From Candidatus Limnocylindrales bacterium (GTDB lineage: Bacteria > Chloroflexota > Limnocylindria > Limnocylindrales > CSP1-4), in assembly GCA_050008515.1 (NCBI GenBank), contig JBEKMM010000005.1:70888-134887 (forward strand): a stretch of 64,000 bases of DNA, written 5' to 3'. Positions 5,106 to 33,461 of this stretch are shown here, piece by piece. Made by a program: the position numbers and the translations under genes. A model generated the notes under the pieces. The model was not told the DNA's origin, did not search any database, and saw nothing but the letters and a program-made list of their open reading frames with translations. Position 1 is the first letter of the stretch; each line of letters begins with the position of its first letter.

Positions 5106-6218
5106 ATGGCCACCGGCACCAACGGCGGAGCGCAAGAGCACGTCTTCTCCCTCGCCTCGCGGCTGAACTTGGCCCGCTACGACGTCAGGGTCGTCTCGCT
5201 CTCGCACGGCAGCAGCGTCCGCCGGTTGCAGAAGGCGGGCATCGAAGCGTCGGTGATCGACGAGCCGGACGACCGCCTGGCCGTTCTGGCGCTGGCCGAG
5301 GAGCTGGCCGCCTTCGAGCCCGAGGTCGTCCACAACCACATGTATCGCGCCGAGGTCGTGGGCACGCTGGCGGCGCTGCACCTGGGCGAGAAGGGTTGCC
5401 GCCGCCCGGCCGTCATCTCGACCGTGCATTCGAGCCGAGTCCGCTGCGTCGAGGACCGCGAGAAGCTCCGCCAGCTCACGCCGCTGATGGATCGCCTCAT
5501 CGTCGTGTCCAAAGCGATCGAGCGGAAGATCGCCGACGAGGGGCGCCGTGGCGCGCCGGTCAGCCTCATCTACAACGGCGTGGACCTGCAGCGCTACAAC
5601 CACCAGCAGCCGTGCTGCACGCTCCACGAGGACTACAAGATCGACCCCGATGCCCCGATCGTCGGCGTCGTGGCTAGACTCGAGGCCGAGAAGGGCCACC
5701 GCACGCTGCTCGACGCCTGGCCGCTGGTCCTCGCCGTCGTCCCCAATGCGTGGCTTCTCGTCGTCGGCGAAGGCTCGGAGCGCGACTCGCTCGAGGCCCA
5801 GGCCGACATCCTGGGCATCTCCGGGAGGGTCGTCTTCACCGGCCGCCGCGAGGACGTGCCGGCGGTCACGGCCGCGCTGGACATCTCGGTCCTGCCGTCG
5901 TACCGCGAGGCCCAGGGCCTGAGCGTTCTCGAGGCGATGGCGCTAAGCCGCCCGGTCGTGGCGTCGGCGGTGGGCGGCATTCCGGAGATGATCGAGGACG
6001 GGGTCAGTGGGCTGCTCGTCCCGCCCCACGACTGCGACGCGCTGGCGGCGGCGATCATCCGGCTGCTGACCGATCACCCGCTGGCCGACACGGTCGCCCG
6101 CCGCGGCCACGATCTGGTCCACGACCGCTTCTGCATCGAGCTGATGGTCAAGGCCGTCTCGGACAAGTACGACGAGGCCGCGGTCCGGATCCGCGAGTCG
6201 AAGAGCGTCGCGCGGTAG
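5106..6218 (+). CDS. GT4 (group 1) glycosyltransferase
   Basis: Only the C-terminal 370 aa of ORF 4389..6218 look like protein. N-term MATGTNGGAQEHVFSLA, EAMALSRPVVASAVGGIPE (E-X7-E) and GVSGLLVPP. Start ATG 5106 (alternative GTG 5097). Confidence 0.8.
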   Translation: MATGTNGGAQEHVFSLASRLNLARYDVRVVSLSHGSSVRRLQKAGIEASVIDEPDDRLAVLALAEELAAFEPEVVHNHMYRAEVVGTLAALHLGEKGCRRPAVISTVHSSRVRCVEDREKLRQLTPLMDRLIVVSKAIERKIADEGRRGAPVSLIYNGVDLQRYNHQQPCCTLHEDYKIDPDAPIVGVVARLEAEKGHRTLLDAWPLVLAVVPNAWLLVVGEGSERDSLEAQADILGISGRVVFTGRREDVPAVTAALDISVLPSYREAQGLSVLEAMALSRPVVASAVGGIPEMIEDGVSGLLVPPHDCDALAAAIIRLLTDHPLADTVARRGHDLVHDRFCIELMVKAVSDKYDEAAVRIRESKSVAR

Positions 6219-6247: not shown

Positions 6248-7135
6248 TCAGGGCGCCGTCGCCCGCCAGTAGCGTTCGGCCGGCTCCGTCCCGGCCACCG
6301 TGCCGACCCGCACGGCCCGGGCTCGAATGACGGCGGCCATCTCCGCGTCGCTGCCGAACAGTCGATCGATCTGGCTGGCGTAGGCTCGGATGCCGGCGAG
6401 CTTGCGGTCAGCCAGGTCGCCGCTCAGCTCCACGCACTCTGGGACCAGCCTGATCCAGGGCGAGAGCCCGGCGAGCTGGTCGGGCCTGAGCTGCTCGAGG
6501 CTGTGGAACTCGGCCACCGCGGCGTACGGCAGATCCTCGTAGAAGACGAGCTGACAGTGGCGCTTCGGCGGGATCCCGCCATGCGGGTAGCGCCCACCCC
6601 CCAGCACGATGATGCCGGCCTGGTGGACCAGGCGATGGTCCACGTGCCCGCCGACGGCCAGCGGCAGGTACGCCACCGCGGGGCGCAGGGAGTCCAGGGC
6701 GGCCTCCAGGCACTTGTAGGGCGGCAGGTCGTCGGGCCTGGGCGGGCCCATCAGCTGGTCCTCGCCCTCGTAGCCACGGAACACCGCGTCGGGCTCGTCC
6801 GCCCGGAACAGCCGCGCACCGACGGTGACGGCATAGGCCGCGTCCTCCGCCGCGCGCTCCCTCATCACGTCGGCGGGGGCGAGCGAACCCCGCCGCTCCC
6901 CGAAGCCGAGGGCCTGGCGCTGGTATGGCGTCAGCTCCGCCCGCGAGCCGGCCCCGGAGTAGACGGTGGCGATGCCGACGCTCTCGCCGCGCTTCCGCAG
7001 CCGCGCAACCAGCCCACCGCAGGAGAGTGCCACGTCGTCGGGGTGAGGGGCGACGAAGAGGTGCGTCACCGGCGGTCCCGTGAAAGCCTGCCGGCAAAGC
7101 TCCGGCCCGCGGATCTCCCGGAAGAGGTCGGTCAC
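6248..7135 (-). CDS. PIG-L / LmbE family N-acetylglucosaminyl deacetylase
   Basis: HPDDVALSCGG motif and HVDH. Start re-assigned to GTG 7135..7133, which overlaps the pcm stop in a GTGA arrangement. The upstream 150 aa of ORF 6248..7585 is Arg-rich junk. Confidence 0.75.
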   Translation of the reverse strand: MTDLFREIRGPELCRQAFTGPPVTHLFVAPHPDDVALSCGGLVARLRKRGESVGIATVYSGAGSRAELTPYQRQALGFGERRGSLAPADVMRERAAEDAAYAVTVGARLFRADEPDAVFRGYEGEDQLMGPPRPDDLPPYKCLEAALDSLRPAVAYLPLAVGGHVDHRLVHQAGIIVLGGGRYPHGGIPPKRHCQLVFYEDLPYAAVAEFHSLEQLRPDQLAGLSPWIRLVPECVELSGDLADRKLAGIRAYASQIDRLFGSDAEMAAVIRARAVRVGTVAGTEPAERYWRATAP

Positions 7136-17759: not shown

Positions 17760-18410
17760 CTAGTCCAGCCGGCGGATGACCCCGATGAGCTTGCCCTGGA
17801 TCCGGACGTCCGCGTAGAACATGGGCGCGTACGCCGAGTTGGCCGGCTGCAGGCGGATCCGGCCGGCTTCCTTGAAGAACTGCTTGAGGGTGACGGAGTT
17901 CTCTTCGACCTGGGCGACGACGATGTCGCCGTCGCGGGCCGTCTGCTGCGGCCGGATCAGGACGAAGTCGCCGTCCTGGATATGGGCGTCGATCATCGAA
18001 TCGCCGCGGACGCGCAGGACGTAGGCATCGCCCGAGGGGGCGAGCAGGTCCGGCACGGCCATGCTCTCCGACGCGTCCTGGTAGGCCTCGATCGGGCCGC
18101 CGGCGGCGATCTCGCCGACGATCGGCAGGACGTGGGCCTCCGTGGCGGTGGCCTGGGGCATCAGCTCGCCCGACAGGCCGAGGCGCAAAGCCGCAAGGGG
18201 CGTCAGGCGGATCGCGCGCGACTGGGCCGCCCCGCGCTCCAGGTAGCCTTCGCGCTCGAGCATCTGCAGGTGATGGTGGACCGCCGACGTGGAGGCGAGA
18301 TCCACCGCTACGGCGATCTCGCGGACGGACGGCGGATAGCCGCGAGTACGCAACGTCGCGGCGATGAAGTCCAGGATCTTGCGTTTGCGTTCGGCGTCGT
18401 GCTTGGTCAC
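17760..18410 (-). CDS. lexA: LexA repressor (S24 peptidase)
   Basis: Winged HTH N-terminus, AG cleavage site (EIAAGGP), RVRGDSM (Ser) and LKQF (Lys). GTG start 18410. Confidence 0.9.
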   Translation of the reverse strand: MTKHDAERKRKILDFIAATLRTRGYPPSVREIAVAVDLASTSAVHHHLQMLEREGYLERGAAQSRAIRLTPLAALRLGLSGELMPQATATEAHVLPIVGEIAAGGPIEAYQDASESMAVPDLLAPSGDAYVLRVRGDSMIDAHIQDGDFVLIRPQQTARDGDIVVAQVEENSVTLKQFFKEAGRIRLQPANSAYAPMFYADVRIQGKLIGVIRRLD

Positions 18411-18460
18411 CGGCGCCTCCTTCCCATCGGAGGGTACAGAACGCCCGTTCGATTGTCAAG
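18411..18460 (-). promoter_or_regulatory. lexA promoter with embedded LexA (Cheo-type) operator
   Basis: On the minus strand: TTGACA - ATCGAACGGGCGTTCTG (17 nt containing GAAC-N4-GTTC) - TACCCT - GGAGG - GTG. Operator core 18428-18442. Confidence 0.75.
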
Positions 18461-26149: not shown

Positions 26150-27466
26150 CTAGGGCGTCAGCAGACGCCAGCTCCGGCCGCCGTCGGCCGTGGAGTACAG
26201 CCTGGCGGTGGGGACCTGGTCGTTCGGGCCCGTCCAGCCGTGGGTCGCGTCGACGAAGTGGGCGATCGAGCCGTTGAAGGGCTGGGCGCCCTCGAGGGCC
26301 CAATGGTGGCCGCCGTCGATCGTGTAGATCGTCTGCGACGGACCCACGCCGCTGCCGGTGACCGTCCCCTCCGTTCCGATCCATTCCAGCGGCCCGAGGA
26401 ACTGGACCTGCGCGCTGGACAGGTTCGCGATGCCCGGGACGCTCGAGGTGTAGTTGGTCCAGGTATGGCCCTGGTCGGTCGAGTCCGTGTAGTTGTACTG
26501 AACTGTGCCGTAGTCAAGGCCCAGGTCGCCATACCACTTGGTCGTGCCCAGGAAGCTGATCACGGGCTCCGAGTAGTCGGTCGTCGGCAGGTGCCGATGG
26601 GTCCAGTGGCCCCAGCCGGTGATCGTGCTTGAGATCTGGTCGTCATACTCCGCGACCCCGATGCTCGGCGTCATGAACTGCACGCGATAGGCGTCGCCCG
26701 ACCCCGTGCCCGGATCCGGGGGCGTATAGGCGAGGGGCGCCGACCACGTGCGTCCGCCGTCGGTCGTCTCGAAGATGGAGGTATTGACGCCGTCGAACCC
26801 GGTCCGCATCCAGATGTAGACGAACGCGGTGTTCGCGTCCACGTAGTCGAAGGTCGCCGCCGGGTCGCCCGGGGCGCCGCAGAAATCCCCCGAGGTGCAG
26901 GGCGAGGCCATCACATCGTGGGCGATCGGCGTGAGGGCGGTGTAGGCCCAGGTCTGGCCGCCATCGCTGGTGCGCCAGATGTAGTAGGTGCTGGTCGAGT
27001 GGCCGACGTCGACGGCGGCGAGCAGCGCGTGATTGGCATCCAGCGCGCCGAGACCGCGGATCGTGCTGGCGATCAGCCTGCGGGGGTATGCGTTCGCCCA
27101 GGTAGACCCGTCATCGATGGTCTGCCACAGGCCGCTGTTGGTGAGGACCCAGCCGACGCCCGGCGCGACGAGGACGTCCTGCTTCACGGTCTGGCCGTGG
27201 ACCCAGGCGACGCGGGGGGCCGGAGTGGCCGCCGGGCCGGTCGTGGGCGTCGCGGCCTCGGTCGCCGACAGCGTCGCGGAGGGGTCTGTCGCGAGCGTTG
27301 GAGTGGGCGTGTCGGTCGGCGAAGCGGCGGGCGTCGCGGTAGCGGCGGCGAAGGTATCGGCGGGCGTGTCGGTCGGCGCTCCTGTGCTCGCGGACGAGCC
27401 GCATGCTGCGGCCAGCGCCAGTACCGCGGAGATACCGGCTAGTCGAAGAAGCGTCAGATATCTCAT
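26150..27466 (-). CDS. Lipoprotein with BNR/Asp-box repeats (sialidase/Ycf48-like beta-propeller)
   Basis: Lipobox LALAAACGSS and T/P-rich linker. Repeats DGGQTW, DGGRTW, DQGHTW, DGGHHW and DGGRSW. Confidence 0.65.
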   Translation of the reverse strand: MRYLTLLRLAGISAVLALAAACGSSASTGAPTDTPADTFAAATATPAASPTDTPTPTLATDPSATLSATEAATPTTGPAATPAPRVAWVHGQTVKQDVLVAPGVGWVLTNSGLWQTIDDGSTWANAYPRRLIASTIRGLGALDANHALLAAVDVGHSTSTYYIWRTSDGGQTWAYTALTPIAHDVMASPCTSGDFCGAPGDPAATFDYVDANTAFVYIWMRTGFDGVNTSIFETTDGGRTWSAPLAYTPPDPGTGSGDAYRVQFMTPSIGVAEYDDQISSTITGWGHWTHRHLPTTDYSEPVISFLGTTKWYGDLGLDYGTVQYNYTDSTDQGHTWTNYTSSVPGIANLSSAQVQFLGPLEWIGTEGTVTGSGVGPSQTIYTIDGGHHWALEGAQPFNGSIAHFVDATHGWTGPNDQVPTARLYSTADGGRSWRLLTP

Positions 27467-27612: not shown

Positions 27613-28860
27613 ATGAGCGGCGGCCGGCTGTGCATCATCCACGTGGACCTGGACGCGTTCTTCGCGGCCGTGGAGCAGCGCGACCGCCCGGAGTTGCGCG
27701 GCAAGCCGGTGATCGTCGGCGGCGACCCGCGGTCCCGCGGCGTCGTAAGCACGTGCAGCTACGAGGCCCGCAAGTTCGGAGTGCATTCGGCGATGCCGCT
27801 GCGGACGGCGCTCTCGCTCTGCCCTCAGGGCGTGTTCGTGCCCGTGGACGGTGCCAAGTACCAGCGCGTAAGCCGCGAAGTCATGACGGTGCTGCGGCAC
27901 TTCACGCCCGTGGTCGAGCAGGTCTCGATCGACGAGGCGTTCCTCGACGTCGCCGGGTCGGAGGGGCTCTTCGGACCCGCGCCGGAGATCGCCCGCCGCA
28001 TCAAGGCGGAGGTCGTCGATGCGGTCGGTCTCACCGTCTCGGTCGGCGTGGCGACCAACAAGCTCATCGCCAAAGTGGCAAGCGACCTGCGCAAGCCTGA
28101 CGGCCTGGTCGTGGTTCAGCCTGGGGACGAGGCCACCTTCCTCGCCCCGCTGGAGATTCGGCGGCTGTGGGGGATCGGGCCCAAAACGGCCGATCGACTG
28201 CACGGCCTGGGCATTGCGACGATAGGCGAGCTGGCGGCGCTGCCGGTGGAGACGCTCACGCGCGCGCTCGGCGAGCACGGCGCCACGCTCCACGATCGGG
28301 CGCTCGGCATCGATCCGGAGCCGGTTCATGGGGGAGGAGAGGCCGCCAAATCTGTCAGCCACGAGACGACGTTCGCGGTCGACGTGACCGACGCCGCCGA
28401 GATCGAGCGGACGCTGCTGGCGCTCACGGAAGGCGTCTCGGCTCGGCTTCGGGCGGCCGGGATTCGGGCGGGGACGGTGGCTGTCAAGATCCGCGACTCG
28501 CAGTTCCGGACGATCACCCGCCAGAAGTCGCTGCCGGAACCTTCCGACCTCACCGACACGATCTGGCGGGCGGCGGTCGAGCTCACCCGGCCGGAGGTGC
28601 GCGGCAAGAAGATCAGGCTGCTCGGAGTCGCCGCGACTCAGCTCGGCCAGCCCGAACAGACCAGCATGTTCGAGATCGTGGACGAGAAGCAGCGGCGCGT
28701 GGTGGACGCCACCGATGCGGTCCGCCGACGCTTCGGCGATCGAGCCGTGACGCGCGGGAGCCTGCTCCATCGTCCAATGCCCTCGCCGTTCGAGCGCGAC
28801 CCGGCATCCGCGGTCGAAGGCCGCGTGGGGATCCCGCCGATCGAGGACGAGATCGAATAG
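27613..28860 (+). CDS. dinB: DNA polymerase IV
   Basis: MSGGRLCIIHVDLDAFFAAVEQRDRPELRGKPVIVGG... SIDEAFLDV. ATG 27613 within ORF 27403..28860. Confidence 0.9.
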   Translation: MSGGRLCIIHVDLDAFFAAVEQRDRPELRGKPVIVGGDPRSRGVVSTCSYEARKFGVHSAMPLRTALSLCPQGVFVPVDGAKYQRVSREVMTVLRHFTPVVEQVSIDEAFLDVAGSEGLFGPAPEIARRIKAEVVDAVGLTVSVGVATNKLIAKVASDLRKPDGLVVVQPGDEATFLAPLEIRRLWGIGPKTADRLHGLGIATIGELAALPVETLTRALGEHGATLHDRALGIDPEPVHGGGEAAKSVSHETTFAVDVTDAAEIERTLLALTEGVSARLRAAGIRAGTVAVKIRDSQFRTITRQKSLPEPSDLTDTIWRAAVELTRPEVRGKKIRLLGVAATQLGQPEQTSMFEIVDEKQRRVVDATDAVRRRFGDRAVTRGSLLHRPMPSPFERDPASAVEGRVGIPPIEDEIE

Positions 28861-28977
28861 GGCCGGCGGGGCAGCGACGGGCGCTAATCGAACGGGCGTC
28901 CGCTTTCGCGTGACACGCTAGCTGGCACAGCCGCCCGCCATTGTCGCGGCGTGACTGGACGCGCAAGACGAAAGCTC

Positions 28978-29032
28978 TTGACGCCGAACGTTTGTTCGAG
29001 TAGTCTCAGGCATGTAATAGAACGTCCGTTCT
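28978..29032 (+). promoter_or_regulatory. SOS promoter with two LexA (Cheo) boxes
   Basis: TTGACG(28978-28983) - CCGAACGTTTGTTCGAG (17-nt spacer; box CGAACGTTTGTTCGA 28985-28999) - TAGTCT (-10, 29001-29006), then a second box AGAACGTCCGTTCT at 29019-29032. Same architecture as the lexA promoter. Confidence 0.75.
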
Positions 29033-29088
29033 TACGCTCAAGTGCCCGCGAGCGAACGACGGCCCGCCAAAGCGAAGAGGAGTCCGCG

Positions 29089-29358
29089 ATGGCCATCGTC
29101 CGCATGGAACCCGTCAACGTCCACGTCCGAGCCGACTGGCTGGACGGAACCCCGCGCGAGATCACCTGGGGCGACGTCCGCCTGCCGGTGACGCGCCTGA
29201 CCGCGGTGCGCAGCGAAACCTCGGCCTATCGAGCCGCCGTCGGCCCTCGCACCTACTTCGAAGTCGAGACGCCGGGGGTCAAGCTGGCGCTCTGCTACAC
29301 GCACCGATCGCACCGCTGGACGGTCGATGGGGTGGACGACGAGGTGGGCCTGGCCTAG
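29089..29358 (+). CDS. Hypothetical 89-aa protein, predicted SOS-inducible
   Basis: ATG 29089 with RBS GAAGAGGAG, within ORF 28951..29358. MAIVRMEPVNVHVRADWLDGTPREITWGDVRLPVTRLTAVRSETSAYRAAVGPRTYFEVETPGVKLALCYTHRSHRWTVDGVDDEVGLA. No family recognised. Confidence 0.5.
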   Translation: MAIVRMEPVNVHVRADWLDGTPREITWGDVRLPVTRLTAVRSETSAYRAAVGPRTYFEVETPGVKLALCYTHRSHRWTVDGVDDEVGLA

Positions 29359-29364
29359 CCGGGA

Positions 29365-29955
29365 TCAGAGTCGAACCGCCACGAGCTCGCCCCCGCCGAT
29401 CGGAACGACGAGGCCCGAAAGCCGCGGATCGGCGAGGGCTCGAGCGCGGAACTCCTCGAGGGCGGAGGCATGAGAGGTGAGGTTGTCGGCGACGAGCAGC
29501 CCGCCCTGGCGGAGGGCATCGATTGCGGGGCCGAGGAGGCGGAGGTAGTCGTCCTTCTCGGCGTCGATGAAGACCAGATCCGCGTGACCGGCGAAGCCGG
29601 CCAGGCCCTCGCCGCCGTCGCCCTCGCGCAGATCCACGAACGGCTCCACTCCCGCGGCCGCGAAGGTGCGGCGAGCGATCGCAACCTTGGCGGGATCCAC
29701 CTCAAAGGTGGTCACGCGGCCAGCGGTCTTCGCCGCGGCCATGGCCAGCCAGAGCGTGGAGTAGCCGCTGCTCGTGCCCACTTCCACGATTGTCACGGCA
29801 CGAGTCGCAACGGCCAGGGTCAGCAGGAACTGACCCACGTCCGGTGCGATCGCGCGCAGCCTGGCGCCCTGTGGAGTTCCGTCCACCCGATCGGCGGCGT
29901 CGCGGGCCTGGAGCTCGGCCATCACAGCTCTCACGAGTTCGGTCGCGAGGTCCAA
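29365..29955 (-). CDS. Class I SAM-dependent O-methyltransferase (family 3, caffeoyl-CoA OMT-like)
   Basis: VEVGTSSGYSTLWLA motif I, and DLVFIDAEKDDY. Confidence 0.7.
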   Translation of the reverse strand: MDLATELVRAVMAELQARDAADRVDGTPQGARLRAIAPDVGQFLLTLAVATRAVTIVEVGTSSGYSTLWLAMAAAKTAGRVTTFEVDPAKVAIARRTFAAAGVEPFVDLREGDGGEGLAGFAGHADLVFIDAEKDDYLRLLGPAIDALRQGGLLVADNLTSHASALEEFRARALADPRLSGLVVPIGGGELVAVRL

Positions 29956-30124
29956 GGCTGCCTCCAGACGGGGTGCGATTCGCGGCTGAGTCGTCGATCA
30001 TGACCCGTTCGGCCGATCCGGGAGGGCGCTTGATCCCTCCTTGCGCCCGGAGCCCGCAGGGCGCGACGACGGCAGCGACCATCCAATCGAACGCCGCGGG
30101 CCCGCCAATCCCTACAATCAGCCC

Positions 30125-30799
30125 ATGGAGAAGCCGCAGAAGTCCGTCTCGCTCGCAGATCTGACCGTCGGCAAGTTCGTAGAGCGCCTCTCCTCGGCTG
30201 AACCCGTTCCCGGAGGAGGAGCGGCCTCGGCCCTGGCGGCGGCGCTGGGCGCGGCGCTGGTATCCATGGTCGCGGGCCTGTCGCTGGGTCGGTCCAAGTA
30301 CGCGGCCTACGAGGCCACGCTGGCCCGGGCCGACGCCGCGGGCAAGGAGCTCGCGGCGGAGTTGCTCGCTCTCTCCGATCGAGACGCGGAAGCCTATGCG
30401 GGCTATTCCGCCGCGCTCAAGCTGCCGCGGGACACGCACGAGCAGAGGGAGGCGCGGCGGTCGGCAATCCGGGCGGCGGCGCGGGTGGCGTCGGACGCGC
30501 CGTGGGATTGCGTTCGGGCGTGCCTGCGGCTGGCCGAGATCGCGGAGGCGATCGCCGGGCGAAGCAACGTCAACGCCTCGAGCGACGTGCTGGTCGCGGC
30601 GCTGCTCGCCGAAGCGGGCGCCAGGGGAGCGGCCGAGAACGTCCGCATCAACCTGCCGTCCACAGGCGACGAGGAGTACTCCGAGGCGATGAGCCGCCAG
30701 CTCGACGAGACGCTCCACGACATCTCGGCGCTGGCCTCCCGGACCCGCGAGATCGTCCTGTCGGGCGGGCCCCAGGACCCGGAGGCCGAGGCGCCGTGA
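30125..30799 (+). CDS. Cyclodeaminase/cyclohydrolase family protein (FTCD C-terminal domain / FchA-like)
   Basis: ATG 30125. FVERLSSAEPVPGGGAASALAAALGAALVSMVAGLS. Stop overlaps folD GTG (GTGA). Confidence 0.75.
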   Translation: MEKPQKSVSLADLTVGKFVERLSSAEPVPGGGAASALAAALGAALVSMVAGLSLGRSKYAAYEATLARADAAGKELAAELLALSDRDAEAYAGYSAALKLPRDTHEQREARRSAIRAAARVASDAPWDCVRACLRLAEIAEAIAGRSNVNASSDVLVAALLAEAGARGAAENVRINLPSTGDEEYSEAMSRQLDETLHDISALASRTREIVLSGGPQDPEAEAP

Positions 30800-31734
30800 G
30801 CGTCCACGGAGACGGGACGCCCACCGCCACCGCTACCGCGGCGTCGGCGGGTCCGCGGCTGCTGGCTGGAAGCCCCATCGCGGCCGAGATTCGAGCCGGC
30901 CTGACCGCCGACTTCGCCGCGTTCAAGGAGCGCTGGGGCTACGCGCCGACGCTCGCGGTCGTCCTGGTCGGCGCGGACGCGCCTTCGGCCGTGTACCTGC
31001 AGCAGATCCTTCGGACGTGCGAGAAGGTCGGCGTCCAGGGGCGGCTGGTGGAGATCGGCTCGGACGTGACTCCGGACGCGCTCTGCAACGAGATCGAGCG
31101 CCTCAACGCCGATCCGGCCGTGGCCGGGATCATCGTCCAGATGCCGCTCCCGGACCACATCCCGCTGCGGACCGTGATCGATTCGATCGACCCGGCCAAG
31201 GACATCGATGGCATCCACCCCCACAACGCCGGCCTGCTCTCGCTCGGCTACGACGGCTTCCTGCCGGCGACGGCCCAGGCCGCGGTCGAGATCCTCAAGC
31301 GCTCGGGGATCGAGATCGCTGGCAAGCGCGTGGTCGTCGTCGGGCGGTCGAACGTGGTCGGCAAGCCCGCGGCGCTGCTGCTCCTGCGCGAGCACGGCAC
31401 GGTCGGCATCCTCCACTCGAAGACCCGCGACCTGGGCCACTACACCCGCGACGCCGAGATCCTGGTCGTCGCGGCCGGCAGGCCGGGCCTGGTCACCGGC
31501 GAGATGCTCTCGCCGGGGGTCGTGGTCGTGGACGTGGGCATCAACGTGGTGGGCGACAGGCTCGTCGGCGACGTTGACTTCGAGTCGGCGAAGGATGTGG
31601 TCGGCGCGATCACCCCGGTGCCCGGCGGCGTCGGGCCGCTCACGAACGCGCTCCTGCTGGCGCATCTCCTGCGCGCGGCTACGGACCAGGCGGAGCGGCG
31701 CGCCGGGGCCGCGGCGAAGGCGGCCGCTCGATGA
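30796..31734 (+). CDS. folD: Bifunctional methylene-THF dehydrogenase / methenyl-THF cyclohydrolase
   Basis: GVQGRLVEI..., VVVVGRSNVVGKPAALLL, and PVPGGVGPLT. GTG 30796 (start uncertain by about 20 aa). Confidence 0.9.
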   Translation: MSVHGDGTPTATATAASAGPRLLAGSPIAAEIRAGLTADFAAFKERWGYAPTLAVVLVGADAPSAVYLQQILRTCEKVGVQGRLVEIGSDVTPDALCNEIERLNADPAVAGIIVQMPLPDHIPLRTVIDSIDPAKDIDGIHPHNAGLLSLGYDGFLPATAQAAVEILKRSGIEIAGKRVVVVGRSNVVGKPAALLLLREHGTVGILHSKTRDLGHYTRDAEILVVAAGRPGLVTGEMLSPGVVVVDVGINVVGDRLVGDVDFESAKDVVGAITPVPGGVGPLTNALLLAHLLRAATDQAERRAGAAAKAAAR

Positions 31735-33461
31735 CCGCCGCCGGCCCCATGCCCAACAGCCTCGAGATCGCCCGGTCCGTGACCCTGCGGCCGATCATGG
31801 AGCTCGCGCGGGAGCTCGGCCTCCACGATGACGAGGTCGAGCTGTACGGGCCGTACAAGGCCAAGATCAGCCTGGCCGGCATCACGCGCCTGGAGGCTGA
31901 GGCGGCCGCGTCGGGCAAGCACGGCAAGTACGTCGTCGTCACGGCCATCACGCCCACTCCGCTGGGCGAGGGCAAGACGACCACCAACATCGGCCTGGTC
32001 CAGGGGCTCAACCGGATCGGCCACAAGGCGGCGGTCTGCATTCGCCAGCCTTCGCTCGGCCCAGTGTTCGGGATCAAGGGCGGGGCCGCCGGCGGCGGAT
32101 ACAGCCAGGTAATCCCGATGGAGGACTTCAACCTTCACCTCACCGGCGACAACCATGCCGTCGGGGCGGCGCACAACCTGCTCGCCGCCTTCGTCGACAA
32201 CTCGCTGACGCACAACAACCCGCTCGGCATCGATCCGCTAGGCGTGCTCTGGCCGCGCGTCGTCGACATCTCCGACCGGGCGGTCCGAAAGGCGATCATC
32301 GGCCTCGGCGGGCGCGAGAACGGCTACCCGCGCGAGACCGAATGGCAGATCACCGTCGCCAGCGAGGTCATGGCGGTGCTGGCGCTCGCGTCCGACCTAC
32401 AGGACCTGCGCCGCCGGCTCGGCCGAATGGTCGTCGCCACCAGCTTCGACGGTCGGATGATCACTGCCGAGGACCTCAAGTGCGCCGGCGCGATGACCGT
32501 CCTGCTGCTCGACGCGATCAAGCCGAACCTGCTCCAGACCCTGGAGGGCGGGCCCGCGTTCGTCCACTGCGGGCCGTTCGCCAACATCGCCCACGGCAAC
32601 AACAGCGTCCTGGCCGATCGCCTGGCGCTCGCCACGTGCGAGATCGCTTGCACCGAAGCCGGCTTCGGTGCGGACATGGGCGCCGAGAAGTTCTTCGACA
32701 TCAAGTGCCGCCAGAGCGGCCTTCGCCCCGACGCGGCGGTCATGGTCGCGACGGTCCGCGCCCTCAAGATGCACGGCGGCGTCGGCCGGATCGTGGCCGG
32801 CAAGCCGCTCGACCCGGCGCTCGAAGCGGAGAACGTGGAGGCCGTTCGAAGGGGCTCGGCCAACCTGGCCGCCCAGATCGAGAACGTGCGCCACTTCCAT
32901 GTCCCCGTGGTGGTGGCCGTCAACCACTATCCCGGCGACACCGAAGCGGAGGTGGCCGCGATCCGGGAAGTGGCGCTGGCCGCCGGCTCGCGCGACGTGG
33001 TGGTGAGCCGCCACTTCGCCGAGGGCGGGGCCGGGGCCGAGGACCTGGCCCGGGCCGTCTGGTCGGCGGCGGAGGAAGGGGCACCGGACTTCACGCTGCT
33101 CTACCCCGACGACCTGCCGCTGCGCGAGAAGATCGAGACCGTCGCGGTCCGGATCTACGGCGCCCGCGGCGTCGACGAGCTGCCGGCGGCGAGCAAGGCT
33201 CTGAAGCTGTACGAGGAGCTGGGCTTCGGCAACCTGCCGGTTTGCATGGCCAAGACCCACCTCTCGCTCAGCCACGACCCGAACCTCAAGGGCCGGCCGA
33301 CCGGCTTCCGCGTCCCCATCCGCGAGGTCCGACTCTCGGCCGGGGCCGGCTTCGTCACCCCGCTCCTGGGGGAGATGCGCACCATGCCGGGGCTGCCCTC
33401 GCACCCCGCCGGCGAGTCGATCGACATCGACTCCGACGGCAACATCGTCGGCCTGTTCTAG
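31731..33461 (+). CDS. fhs: Formate--tetrahydrofolate ligase
   Basis: TPTPLGEGKTTTNIGL, and full length 576 aa. ATGA overlap with folD. Confidence 0.9.
   Translation: MTAAGPMPNSLEIARSVTLRPIMELARELGLHDDEVELYGPYKAKISLAGITRLEAEAAASGKHGKYVVVTAITPTPLGEGKTTTNIGLVQGLNRIGHKAAVCIRQPSLGPVFGIKGGAAGGGYSQVIPMEDFNLHLTGDNHAVGAAHNLLAAFVDNSLTHNNPLGIDPLGVLWPRVVDISDRAVRKAIIGLGGRENGYPRETEWQITVASEVMAVLALASDLQDLRRRLGRMVVATSFDGRMITAEDLKCAGAMTVLLLDAIKPNLLQTLEGGPAFVHCGPFANIAHGNNSVLADRLALATCEIACTEAGFGADMGAEKFFDIKCRQSGLRPDAAVMVATVRALKMHGGVGRIVAGKPLDPALEAENVEAVRRGSANLAAQIENVRHFHVPVVVAVNHYPGDTEAEVAAIREVALAAGSRDVVVSRHFAEGGAGAEDLARAVWSAAEEGAPDFTLLYPDDLPLREKIETVAVRIYGARGVDELPAASKALKLYEELGFGNLPVCMAKTHLSLSHDPNLKGRPTGFRVPIREVRLSAGAGFVTPLLGEMRTMPGLPSHPAGESIDIDSDGNIVGLF

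Follow-up and report, generated by a model that had tools for sequence, protein, structure and literature searches.

We analyzed a 64,000-nt stretch of DNA from the Chloroflexota class Limnocylindria (the window) and focus here on a small gene directly downstream of dinB, which encodes a protein of 89 amino acids (aa) and whose promoter is overlaid by two predicted operators of the SOS repressor LexA. The elements of this gene, together with lexA and its promoter, occupy the following positions in the window.

28978–28983, + strand: −35 hexamer TTGACG; 42 distinct upstream regions have TTGAC(A/G) at this place
28985–28999 (core 28986–28997), + strand: predicted LexA operator 1, CGAACGTTTGTTCGA, nearly filling the −35/−10 spacer
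29001–29006, + strand: −10 hexamer TAGTCT, weak (3/6); relatives have TATGAT or TATGCT there
29019–29032 (core 29020–29031), + strand: predicted LexA operator 2, AGAACGTCCGTTCT, over the expected transcription start and early leader
29027–29058, + strand: predicted hairpin of the 5′ leader, with the right half of operator 2 as 5′ arm and a conserved GUGCC in the loop
29077–29082, + strand: Shine–Dalgarno sequence GAGGAG, 6 nt ahead of the ATG; GGAG is kept in relatives
29089–29358, + strand: coding sequence of the 89-aa protein, probably a divergent, standalone ImuB-C-like protein of the DUF6504 superfamily; ATG 29089, TAG 29356–29358
17760–18410, − strand: lexA, 216 aa (LexA_DNA_bind 2.4e-20, Peptidase_S24 4.1e-32)
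18411–18460, − strand: lexA promoter, TTGACA-atCGAACGGGCGTTCTg-TACCCT, with a single LexA box at 18439–18450 in the spacer

An earlier sequence-only reading of this DNA had named the promoter elements, the boxes, the ribosome-binding site and the ATG of the small gene, and had remarked that the lexA promoter shares the same layout. Reading the window, we found every one of these elements where it had been placed.

LexA operators at the small-gene promoter

The −35 and −10 hexamers are separated by a 17-nt spacer, and operator 2 begins 12 nt past the −10 hexamer. Defining a perfect LexA box as GAAC-N4-GTTC, we found three in the window: two at the promoter of the 89-aa gene and one at the lexA promoter. 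Shuffling the window yields an expectation of 0.65 such boxes, and three matches appeared in 3 of 100 shuffles. Boxes with one mismatch are found 23 times, where 17.9 ± 3.9 are expected, which is the chance level; therefore, only perfect boxes are informative. One such imperfect site, GAACGGGCGTCC (inside aatCGAACGGGCGTCCg), lies at 28890–28901, 30 bp past the dinB stop codon, and resembles the lexA-promoter box CGAACGGGCGTTCT. We rejected it as a third functional box: it carries one mismatch, it is not kept in relatives and such sites are as frequent as expected by chance. A generic promoter scan made no call at the promoter of the 89-aa gene because its −10 hexamer is weak.

We then compared the window with 46 fetched loci, 10 obtained by exact-protein look-up and 36 from species-level genomes searched with the A3 subfamily alignment, for a total of 47 sequences. 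The loci represent about 40 Limnocylindria species, all relatives being metagenome-assembled genomes (MAGs), and their protein identity extends down to about 33%. In every one of the 47 loci, which together have 42 distinct upstream sequences, a perfect LexA box occupies the −35/−10 spacer of the homologue, and both boxes are perfect in 46 of them, with a start-to-start spacing of 30–36 bp, or of 42 bp in one subclade. The second box lies past the −10 hexamer in 41 loci and 5′ of the −35 hexamer in five (L040–L044). In L004–L006, the dual-operator promoter has been kept even though an insertion sequence (IS) element has taken the place of the region 5′ of the small gene. Within each ~14-kb locus, perfect boxes occur almost only at the lexA promoter and the small-gene promoter, and every lexA whose start lies inside a fetched locus has one perfect box 28–70 bp upstream. 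Because the boxes are conserved over the core promoter in all 47 loci, a chance origin is excluded.

The operators match the perfect motif on this lineage's own lexA promoter, they overlap the core promoter and they are conserved across species. On this comparative evidence, the 89-aa gene is almost certainly under LexA control, and we infer that LexA binds this promoter and that DNA damage induces it. Class-wide phylogenetic footprinting thus backs the LexA-gated promoter of the sequence-only reading, and the conserved operators support its suggestion that this is a core SOS gene of the Limnocylindria lineage. The opposite proposal is that the palindromes are not LexA sites, or that the open reading frame (ORF) is non-functional. 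In its favor, the bare 8-base motif reaches three matches in a few of the shuffled windows and the generic promoter scan is empty here. It is contradicted by the perfect boxes at the same promoter positions in every locus, by the same motif before every lexA with a fetched start and by a protein that is kept to 33% identity with constant length and substitutions at third codon positions. The comparative data effectively refute this proposal, which we regard as exceedingly improbable.

The five loci with the alternative layout (~6930–7003; 1870–1939 in L043) place a LexA box within a TTGACA/TATTCT spacer, with the −10 hexamer only 7–9 nt from the ATG and the other box 42 bp upstream, within the end of dinB. 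Their short −10-to-ATG distance suggests a leaderless-like transcript.

Two LexA sites on one promoter, as in the Escherichia coli lexA, recN and colicin genes, give tighter and later-induced expression. The promoter of the 89-aa gene differs from these E. coli promoters in that its operators are of the GAAC-N4-GTTC type (Gram-positive/Chloroflexi), with one box in the spacer and one on the start and leader, in an arrangement that is fixed class-wide. Its dual sites would give a lower basal expression and a later induction than the single-site lexA(-dinB) promoter.

The leader of the mRNA may contribute a further layer. A hairpin with a GUGCC loop was predicted in 31 of 33 distinct leaders, using per-sequence folds whose z-scores are modest. 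The hairpin stems vary by clade (CGTTC..CGCTC/GAGCG..AACG in the window clade, CCUGUUCG/CGAGCAGG elsewhere) and include G·U pairs; therefore, an RNA rather than a DNA element is favored, with modest statistics. RNAalifold on a mixed-clade leader alignment did not recover the hairpin and returned the operator palindrome alone. If it forms, the predicted hairpin may stabilize or modulate the mRNA.

Farther upstream, 150–200 bp 5′ of the small gene, we observed an inverted repeat, GTGACA-N7-TGTCAC, at 28909–28927 of the window (with one mismatch there) and also in L001 (~5799–5817), L004 (~5821–5839) and L009 (~5853–5871). It is absent from the other clades, and it is retained in L004, where the IS element has replaced dinB. 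The repeat could be bound by a second regulator, or it could be what is left of a dinB terminator.

The 89-aa protein and the ImuB C-terminal domain

The predicted product starts MAIVRMEPVNVHVRADWLDG. Its ORF has a GC content at third codon positions (GC3) of 0.89, and 46–50 of about 80 nucleotide changes between relatives fall at third codon positions. From this third-position excess and the GC3, it follows that the ORF is coding and, as its substitutions indicate, under purifying selection at the protein level. We found 146 close homologues and about 950 in total, nearly all 86–93 aa long and annotated only as 'hypothetical protein'. When 1.84 billion representatives were scanned in full with HMMER, 146 proteins reached E ≤ 0.001; the matches that we examined belong to the family or are fragments, gene-call fusions or false positives from repeat proteins. 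Three long multi-domain matches (P0205, P0219 and P0252) are PKD- or Ig-like-repeat false positives, and another two, P0189 and P0208, represent fusions or gene-calling errors that involve the DinB C-terminus and FTCD_C. The named sources are all Chloroflexota or 'Candidatus Limnocylindria' MAGs, apart from four bins with other phylum-level labels, which are taken to be mis-binned. A tblastn search of a family member against plasmids gave no match, and we found no mention of this gene in the literature on LexA in Chloroflexi and on Limnocylindria.

Pfam and NCBIfam assign no family to the 89-aa protein above threshold. Even at E ≤ 10, its sole Pfam match is DUF6504 (PF20114; 14.4 bits, E = 0.045), in agreement with the earlier view that it is not SulA-, YneA- or ChiZ-like. 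The identity of DUF6504 was resolved using ImuB C-termini recovered from Sinorhizobium meliloti pSymA and other plasmids. The pSymA ImuB (L047:25840–27393) lies directly 5′ of a 1096-aa DnaE2, and its last 99 residues match DUF6504 (E = 4e-4) and no other Pfam family. A tblastn search of this C-terminal segment against plasmids matched 695 records. Whole ImuB proteins on Sphingomonas plasmids are named 'DUF6504 family protein' by the Prokaryotic Genome Annotation Pipeline (L048, NZ_CP065714.1 286758–289316; L049, NZ_CP024924.1 4132–5691), and one of the two, the one with an annotated downstream gene, directly precedes an error-prone polymerase gene. One of them is 852 aa long and is probably fused to an upstream module. 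In addition, most metagenomic 'protein ImuB' fragments of the Joint Genome Institute carry PF20114. Because of the pSymA match, the Sphingomonas naming and the PF20114 assignments, DUF6504 is the C-terminal domain of ImuB (ImuB-C). The label masks the ImuB/ImuB-C identity in public annotation, and our literature search found no paper under the name DUF6504.

The study of Aravind, Anand and Iyer 2013 (PMC3765255) defines the ImuB-C domain, gives a conserved C-terminal Trp and conserved basic residues as its hallmarks, and reports that standalone ImuB-C genes are most often paired with a dinB gene and often with lexA. According to the models of a 2026 survey (PMC12926913), ImuB-C is a beta-barrel with a novel fold that has no relatives in the PDB and is not SH3-like. 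We quantified the relationship of the 89-aa family to this domain by profile–profile comparison. When a diverse family alignment (A2) was compared with nine diverse ImuB C-termini (A6), hhalign returned E = 1.7e-5, a probability of 78.6%, a score of 32.3 and 28% identity over 75 columns, in a register that covers essentially the whole domain (family 8–82 to ImuB-C 11–97). Four other profile pairings gave the same register (E = 4.6e-5 to 6e-4). Full-register comparisons scored 24–32, against 11.4 for reversed and at most 16.8 for 30 column-shuffled controls. A global-mode run lowered the probability, and a comparison with a single ImuB-C sequence was uninformative. Reciprocal searches with hidden Markov models were weakly positive both ways (E = 4e-4 to 2e-3, in small databases). 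Taken as sequence evidence, this whole-domain profile homology to ImuB C-termini is of moderate strength and not decisive.

The conserved residues point in the same direction. Across 29 diverse members, W77 and R41 are invariant and R54 is nearly so. W77 aligns with the Trp of (H/K)RW in ImuB-C, R54 aligns with the Arg of RDYF, and the family motif 'P(R/P)xx(I/F)TW' near residues 22–27 aligns with ImuB 'PPxxFTW'. In these alignments, the family has the conserved C-terminal Trp and basic residues published as the hallmark of the domain. The canonical ImuB-C motifs GPERI-x2-EWW and WFLHG-FA are not in the family, which has VRxExxAY and RWxV(D/E)G instead.

AlphaFold2 (AF2) models the 89-aa protein as a compact soluble domain of seven beta strands without a hydrophobic helix (predicted local distance difference test, pLDDT, 87.8), and we found no solved-structure relatives by sequence or fold search. 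When a bona fide ImuB-C is modeled with AF2 (pLDDT 79.7), its strands fall at 6–17, 27–30, 33–47, 60–68, 73–83 and 90–97, and these coincide with the seven strands of the window protein when positions are matched through the hhalign register. The predicted protein therefore shares with standalone ImuB-C a length of ~90–100 aa, an all-beta composition without a PDB relative, and the C-terminal Trp and arginines; with the C-termini of S. meliloti pSymA ImuB and Mycobacterium tuberculosis Rv3394c, it shares whole-domain profile similarity and the AF2 strand order. In contrast to full ImuB, it is not fused to a (dead) Y-family core, and its partner polymerase is intact. We conclude that the 89-aa protein is probably homologous to ImuB-C, as a very divergent member.

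Invariant residues cluster in a loop at 41–54 (R41, E43, A46, G52, P53 and R54), where the pLDDT is lower, and in the model this loop looks like an interaction site. The net charge of the protein is near neutral. At the C-terminus, the distant subfamilies (P0137–P0258, alignments A3 and A4) almost all end in -AA (for example ...LETAA and ...SLRAA), and the window clade ends in -GLA or -GLS. The -AA end could be an ssrA-like ClpXP degron, or simply the counterpart of the ImuB ...HG(L/I)F(A/G) C-terminus.

SOS division inhibitors are non-homologous between clades and often adjoin lexA, and the small gene might encode a lineage-specific SOS effector of this kind, unrelated to ImuB-C, such as a cytoplasmic checkpoint protein or division inhibitor that acts like SulA, would require very tight repression on account of its toxicity and would be encoded near lexA, as yneA, chiZ and divS are. 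The unusually tight control by dual operators, the confinement of the family to one class, an ancestral position near lexA, the sub-threshold DUF6504 match and -AA ends readable as a ClpXP-type degron would all suit such an effector. The whole-domain, single-register match to ImuB-C above controls and the presence of the hallmark Trp and Arg positions argue against it, as does a conserved neighbor, dinB, that separates the small gene from lexA; neither Pfam at E ≤ 10 nor the AF2 model shows a SulA, LysM or transmembrane signal. We consider an unrelated effector quite improbable, and ImuB-C remains our assignment of the protein.

DinB and the gene neighborhood

The genes that surround the small gene, and the segments of DinB that bear on its possible function, are located as follows.

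27613–28860, + strand: dinB, Y-family DNA polymerase IV, 415 aa; ATG 27613, IMS match 2.8e-55
28657–28671, + strand: candidate beta-clamp-binding motif (E)QTSMF of DinB; relatives have QQLTLF
28684–28755, + strand: RecA-NT-like helix-strand motif of DinB, EKQRRVVDATDAVRRRFGDRAVTR (...DAVRxRFGdrAItRarLL), conserved class-wide
28768–28803, + strand: terminal DinB tail, HRPMPSPFERDP; relatives have ERPxRRFDFGERP; candidate docking site for a small subunit
29365–29955, − strand: O-methyltransferase gene, convergent, ending 6 bp past the stop codon of the small gene and lying between it and FTCD_C
30041–33461, same strand as the small gene: FTCD_C-folD-fhs genes (one-carbon folate metabolism), following the small gene class-wide

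The catalytic motifs HVDLDAFF and SIDEAF are present in DinB, which, judged by its sequence, is catalytically intact. Its C-terminal extension of ~60 residues is conserved class-wide and has three parts. The first resembles the clamp motif consensus, QL[SD]LF, and the second is the RecA-NT-like motif. The third, the terminal tail, is a candidate for docking the small subunit because of its analogy with the tails of UmuC and YqjW (PMC6511836); the same source links such a tail architecture to RecA binding and small-subunit docking by Y-family polymerases.

We determined synteny by tblastn of the window LexA, DinB and FTCD_C proteins against all loci. Most fetched loci have the gene order lexA(+), dinB(+), small gene(+) and FTCD_C-folD-fhs, even in subfamilies that are 33–40% identical to the window protein, and this is the ancestral order. 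The small gene is directly preceded by dinB in nearly all loci, which supports the tie to the translesion polymerase noted in the sequence-only reading, and lexA is 5′ of dinB in most of them. A Y-family polymerase, lexA and SOS control, the neighborhood described for ImuB-C, are thus all found here, with LexA boxes at both promoters.

In the window, this cluster is broken: lexA is found on the opposite strand at a distance of 10 kb, and dinB is without a LexA box. That dinB lacks a box of its own had been noted earlier and holds for the window; the contrast that was drawn with the small gene, of a dinB with just a half-site, is genome-specific, since lexA lies directly 5′ of dinB in most relatives. 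In about half of the related genomes, dinB follows the end of lexA on the same strand after 35–160 bp that contain no box (L007, L013, L016–L018, L026, L028–L036, L039, L041, L043 and L044), and elsewhere one gene of ~1.2 kb is inserted. In these close pairs, lexA and dinB are probably co-transcribed from the LexA-controlled lexA promoter.

The small gene has its own promoter in every locus. In the window genome, the convergent methyltransferase gene is wedged in behind it, and therefore the small gene is monocistronic there; co-transcription with the folate genes was set aside for the same reason. In L007, the insertion is a formyltransferase gene instead. On the other side of dinB, a divergent gene for a 438-aa protein (26150–27466, − strand) has its 5′ end just 5′ of the dinB start; the N-terminus of the protein is lipoprotein-like (…LAAACGSS), its linker is rich in Pro, Thr and Ala, and it gives weak signals of BNR/Asp-box repeats.

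We found no dnaE2 in the window (no ORF of at least 900 aa) or in any fetched locus, no imuA in the fetched sequence, and no recA in the window or the fetched loci. These results bear on how an ImuB-C-like protein might act. Rather than serving as a stoichiometric DinB subunit, it could be a non-catalytic sensor of damaged DNA or could act on the PHP domain of a C-family polymerase. Damage recognition and recruitment are what PMC3765255 proposes for ImuB-C, and in the modeled ImuA-ImuB-DnaE2 complex the main ImuB-C interface is the DnaE2 PHP domain (PMC12926913). The clustering of invariant residues in the lower-pLDDT loop, and the persistence of the small gene without an adjacent dinB in a few loci, are also compatible with such a role. 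Against it stand the missing dnaE2, the class-wide adjacency of dinB, the conserved terminal tail of DinB, a typical feature of polymerases with a docked small subunit (PMC6511836), and a near-neutral net charge that does not suggest a DNA binder. We judge a sensor or PHP-directed role to be rather unlikely.

A proposed LexA-gated partner for DinB

We propose that 29089–29358 encodes a small, all-beta, free-standing ImuB-C-like protein that is a damage-inducible accessory of a lexA/Y-family-polymerase/ImuB-C module, and we consider this reading likely. Several observations weigh against it. The DUF6504 scores of 14–16 bits fall below the Pfam gathering cut-off of 24.2, with just three of the 29 family members at E < 1 (best E = 0.011). 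Two narrower sub-alignments (A1 and A4) gave only partial hhalign matches to ImuB-C (E = 0.0095 and 0.045), and the hhalign probability, 79% at best, is 28–50% with larger, less diverse profiles. On the polymerase side, the DinB motif aligns weakly by hhalign with residues 6–29 of E. coli RecA, the RecA-NT oligomerization motif (E = 0.006), and Pfam finds no DUF4113 match in the DinB tail. Finally, genes other than dinB lie directly 5′ of the small gene in L001–L003. The first of these points has a scale: a bona fide ImuB C-terminus, that of S. meliloti pSymA, scores merely 21 bits against DUF6504, and therefore the DUF6504 model is narrow.

According to the proposed mechanism, LexA dimers on both operators would shut the promoter in undamaged cells by a combination of occlusion and roadblock. 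After damage, RecA-stimulated self-cleavage of LexA would free the promoter and produce a monocistronic mRNA with a structured leader. The accumulated protein would then join DinB and RecA to form or regulate a translesion complex. We infer a physical interaction with DinB and RecA and an effect on polymerase activity; the likely product would be a translesion/mutagenic PolY-RecA-[ImuB-C] complex such as Timinskas and Venclovas put forward in 2019 (PMC6511836), where PolY is a Y-family polymerase. That study described operons with an active PolY and a standalone ImuB-C (with or without lexA) that lack imuA and dnaE2, and a lexA-imuB-C-polY operon of Geobacter that is damage-induced.

More tentatively, the ImuB-C-like protein, and not DinB, may be the tightly gated, limiting component, one that licenses DinB into a Pol V-like PolY-RecA-[ImuB-C] mutasome; we hold this to be possible but doubtful. 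DinB would be made together with LexA from a single-operator promoter, and in the window genome from a promoter without a LexA box. The two-operator promoter and structured leader would delay and restrict synthesis of the small subunit, and DinB would be licensed through its RecA-NT motif and conserved tail. If true, this would be a third independently evolved small-subunit control of mutagenic synthesis, after UmuD′ and YolD, and would offer a DnaE2-free setting for testing ImuB-C function.

The accessory protein that we propose shares its logic with UmuD′ of Pol V and with YolD/YqjX: each is a small, LexA-controlled, beta-rich protein beside a Y-family polymerase, and the partner polymerases of UmuD′ and YolD share with this DinB a RecA-NT-like motif and a conserved C-terminal tail. 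In contrast to UmuD′ and YolD, the 89-aa protein has no self-cleavage site. We rejected it as a UmuD or YolD homologue: it has no Peptidase_S24 or YolD (PF08863) match, and the ImuB-C fold is described as not SH3-like.

With the published standalone ImuB-C systems, the Limnocylindria genes have in common a location beside an active DinB-type Y-family polymerase and lexA, SOS control and no imuA or dnaE2 nearby. They differ in several respects. The Limnocylindria sequence is too divergent for Pfam or NCBIfam calls. The small gene lies behind the polymerase gene, under a two-operator promoter of its own, rather than being part of one lexA-led transcript. The genes have a predicted structured leader, and the distant subfamilies end in -AA. 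The published hosts of PolY-ImuB-C are delta-proteobacteria, Deferribacteres, Planctomycetes, Clostridia and Actinobacteria, whereas the host here belongs to the Chloroflexota. From ImuB systems they are set apart by the lack of DnaE2 and ImuA in the fetched Limnocylindria sequence.

The sequence-only reading had called the protein uncharacterized and of unknown function. This part does not stand: the homology search now places it most likely as a divergent standalone ImuB-C, whose link to dinB and lexA has been described (PMC3765255; PMC6511836; PMC12926913). A module of lexA, active PolY and standalone ImuB-C without ImuA or DnaE2 is likewise already known from comparative genomics and from the Geobacter transcript. 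What is new is a family of about 950 proteins in the Limnocylindria (Chloroflexota) which escapes current models, together with its gene order, in which the small subunit has an invariant two-operator promoter to itself, its predicted structured leader and the -AA ends of its distant subfamilies.

To our knowledge, no module of the bacterial error-prone polymerase systems is less understood than ImuB-C, and we know of no standalone ImuB-C that has been characterized biochemically. The finding would not greatly surprise a specialist in SOS and translesion synthesis, and its main value is as a minimal system for learning what ImuB-C does. The lexA/PolY/ImuB-C module would extend to an abundant class of uncultured soil and freshwater Chloroflexota, whose members the Pfam and NCBIfam models miss, leaving about 950 proteins merely 'hypothetical'; a widespread hypothetical gene would gain a name and a regulon assignment. 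The design is a clean natural one, with an active partner polymerase, no DnaE2 or ImuA seen nearby and a two-operator promoter on the small subunit alone. This speaks for the small protein as the step at which translesion synthesis is regulated in these bacteria, and DinB, RecA and the 89-aa protein would form a minimal three-protein system for testing how ImuB-C acts.

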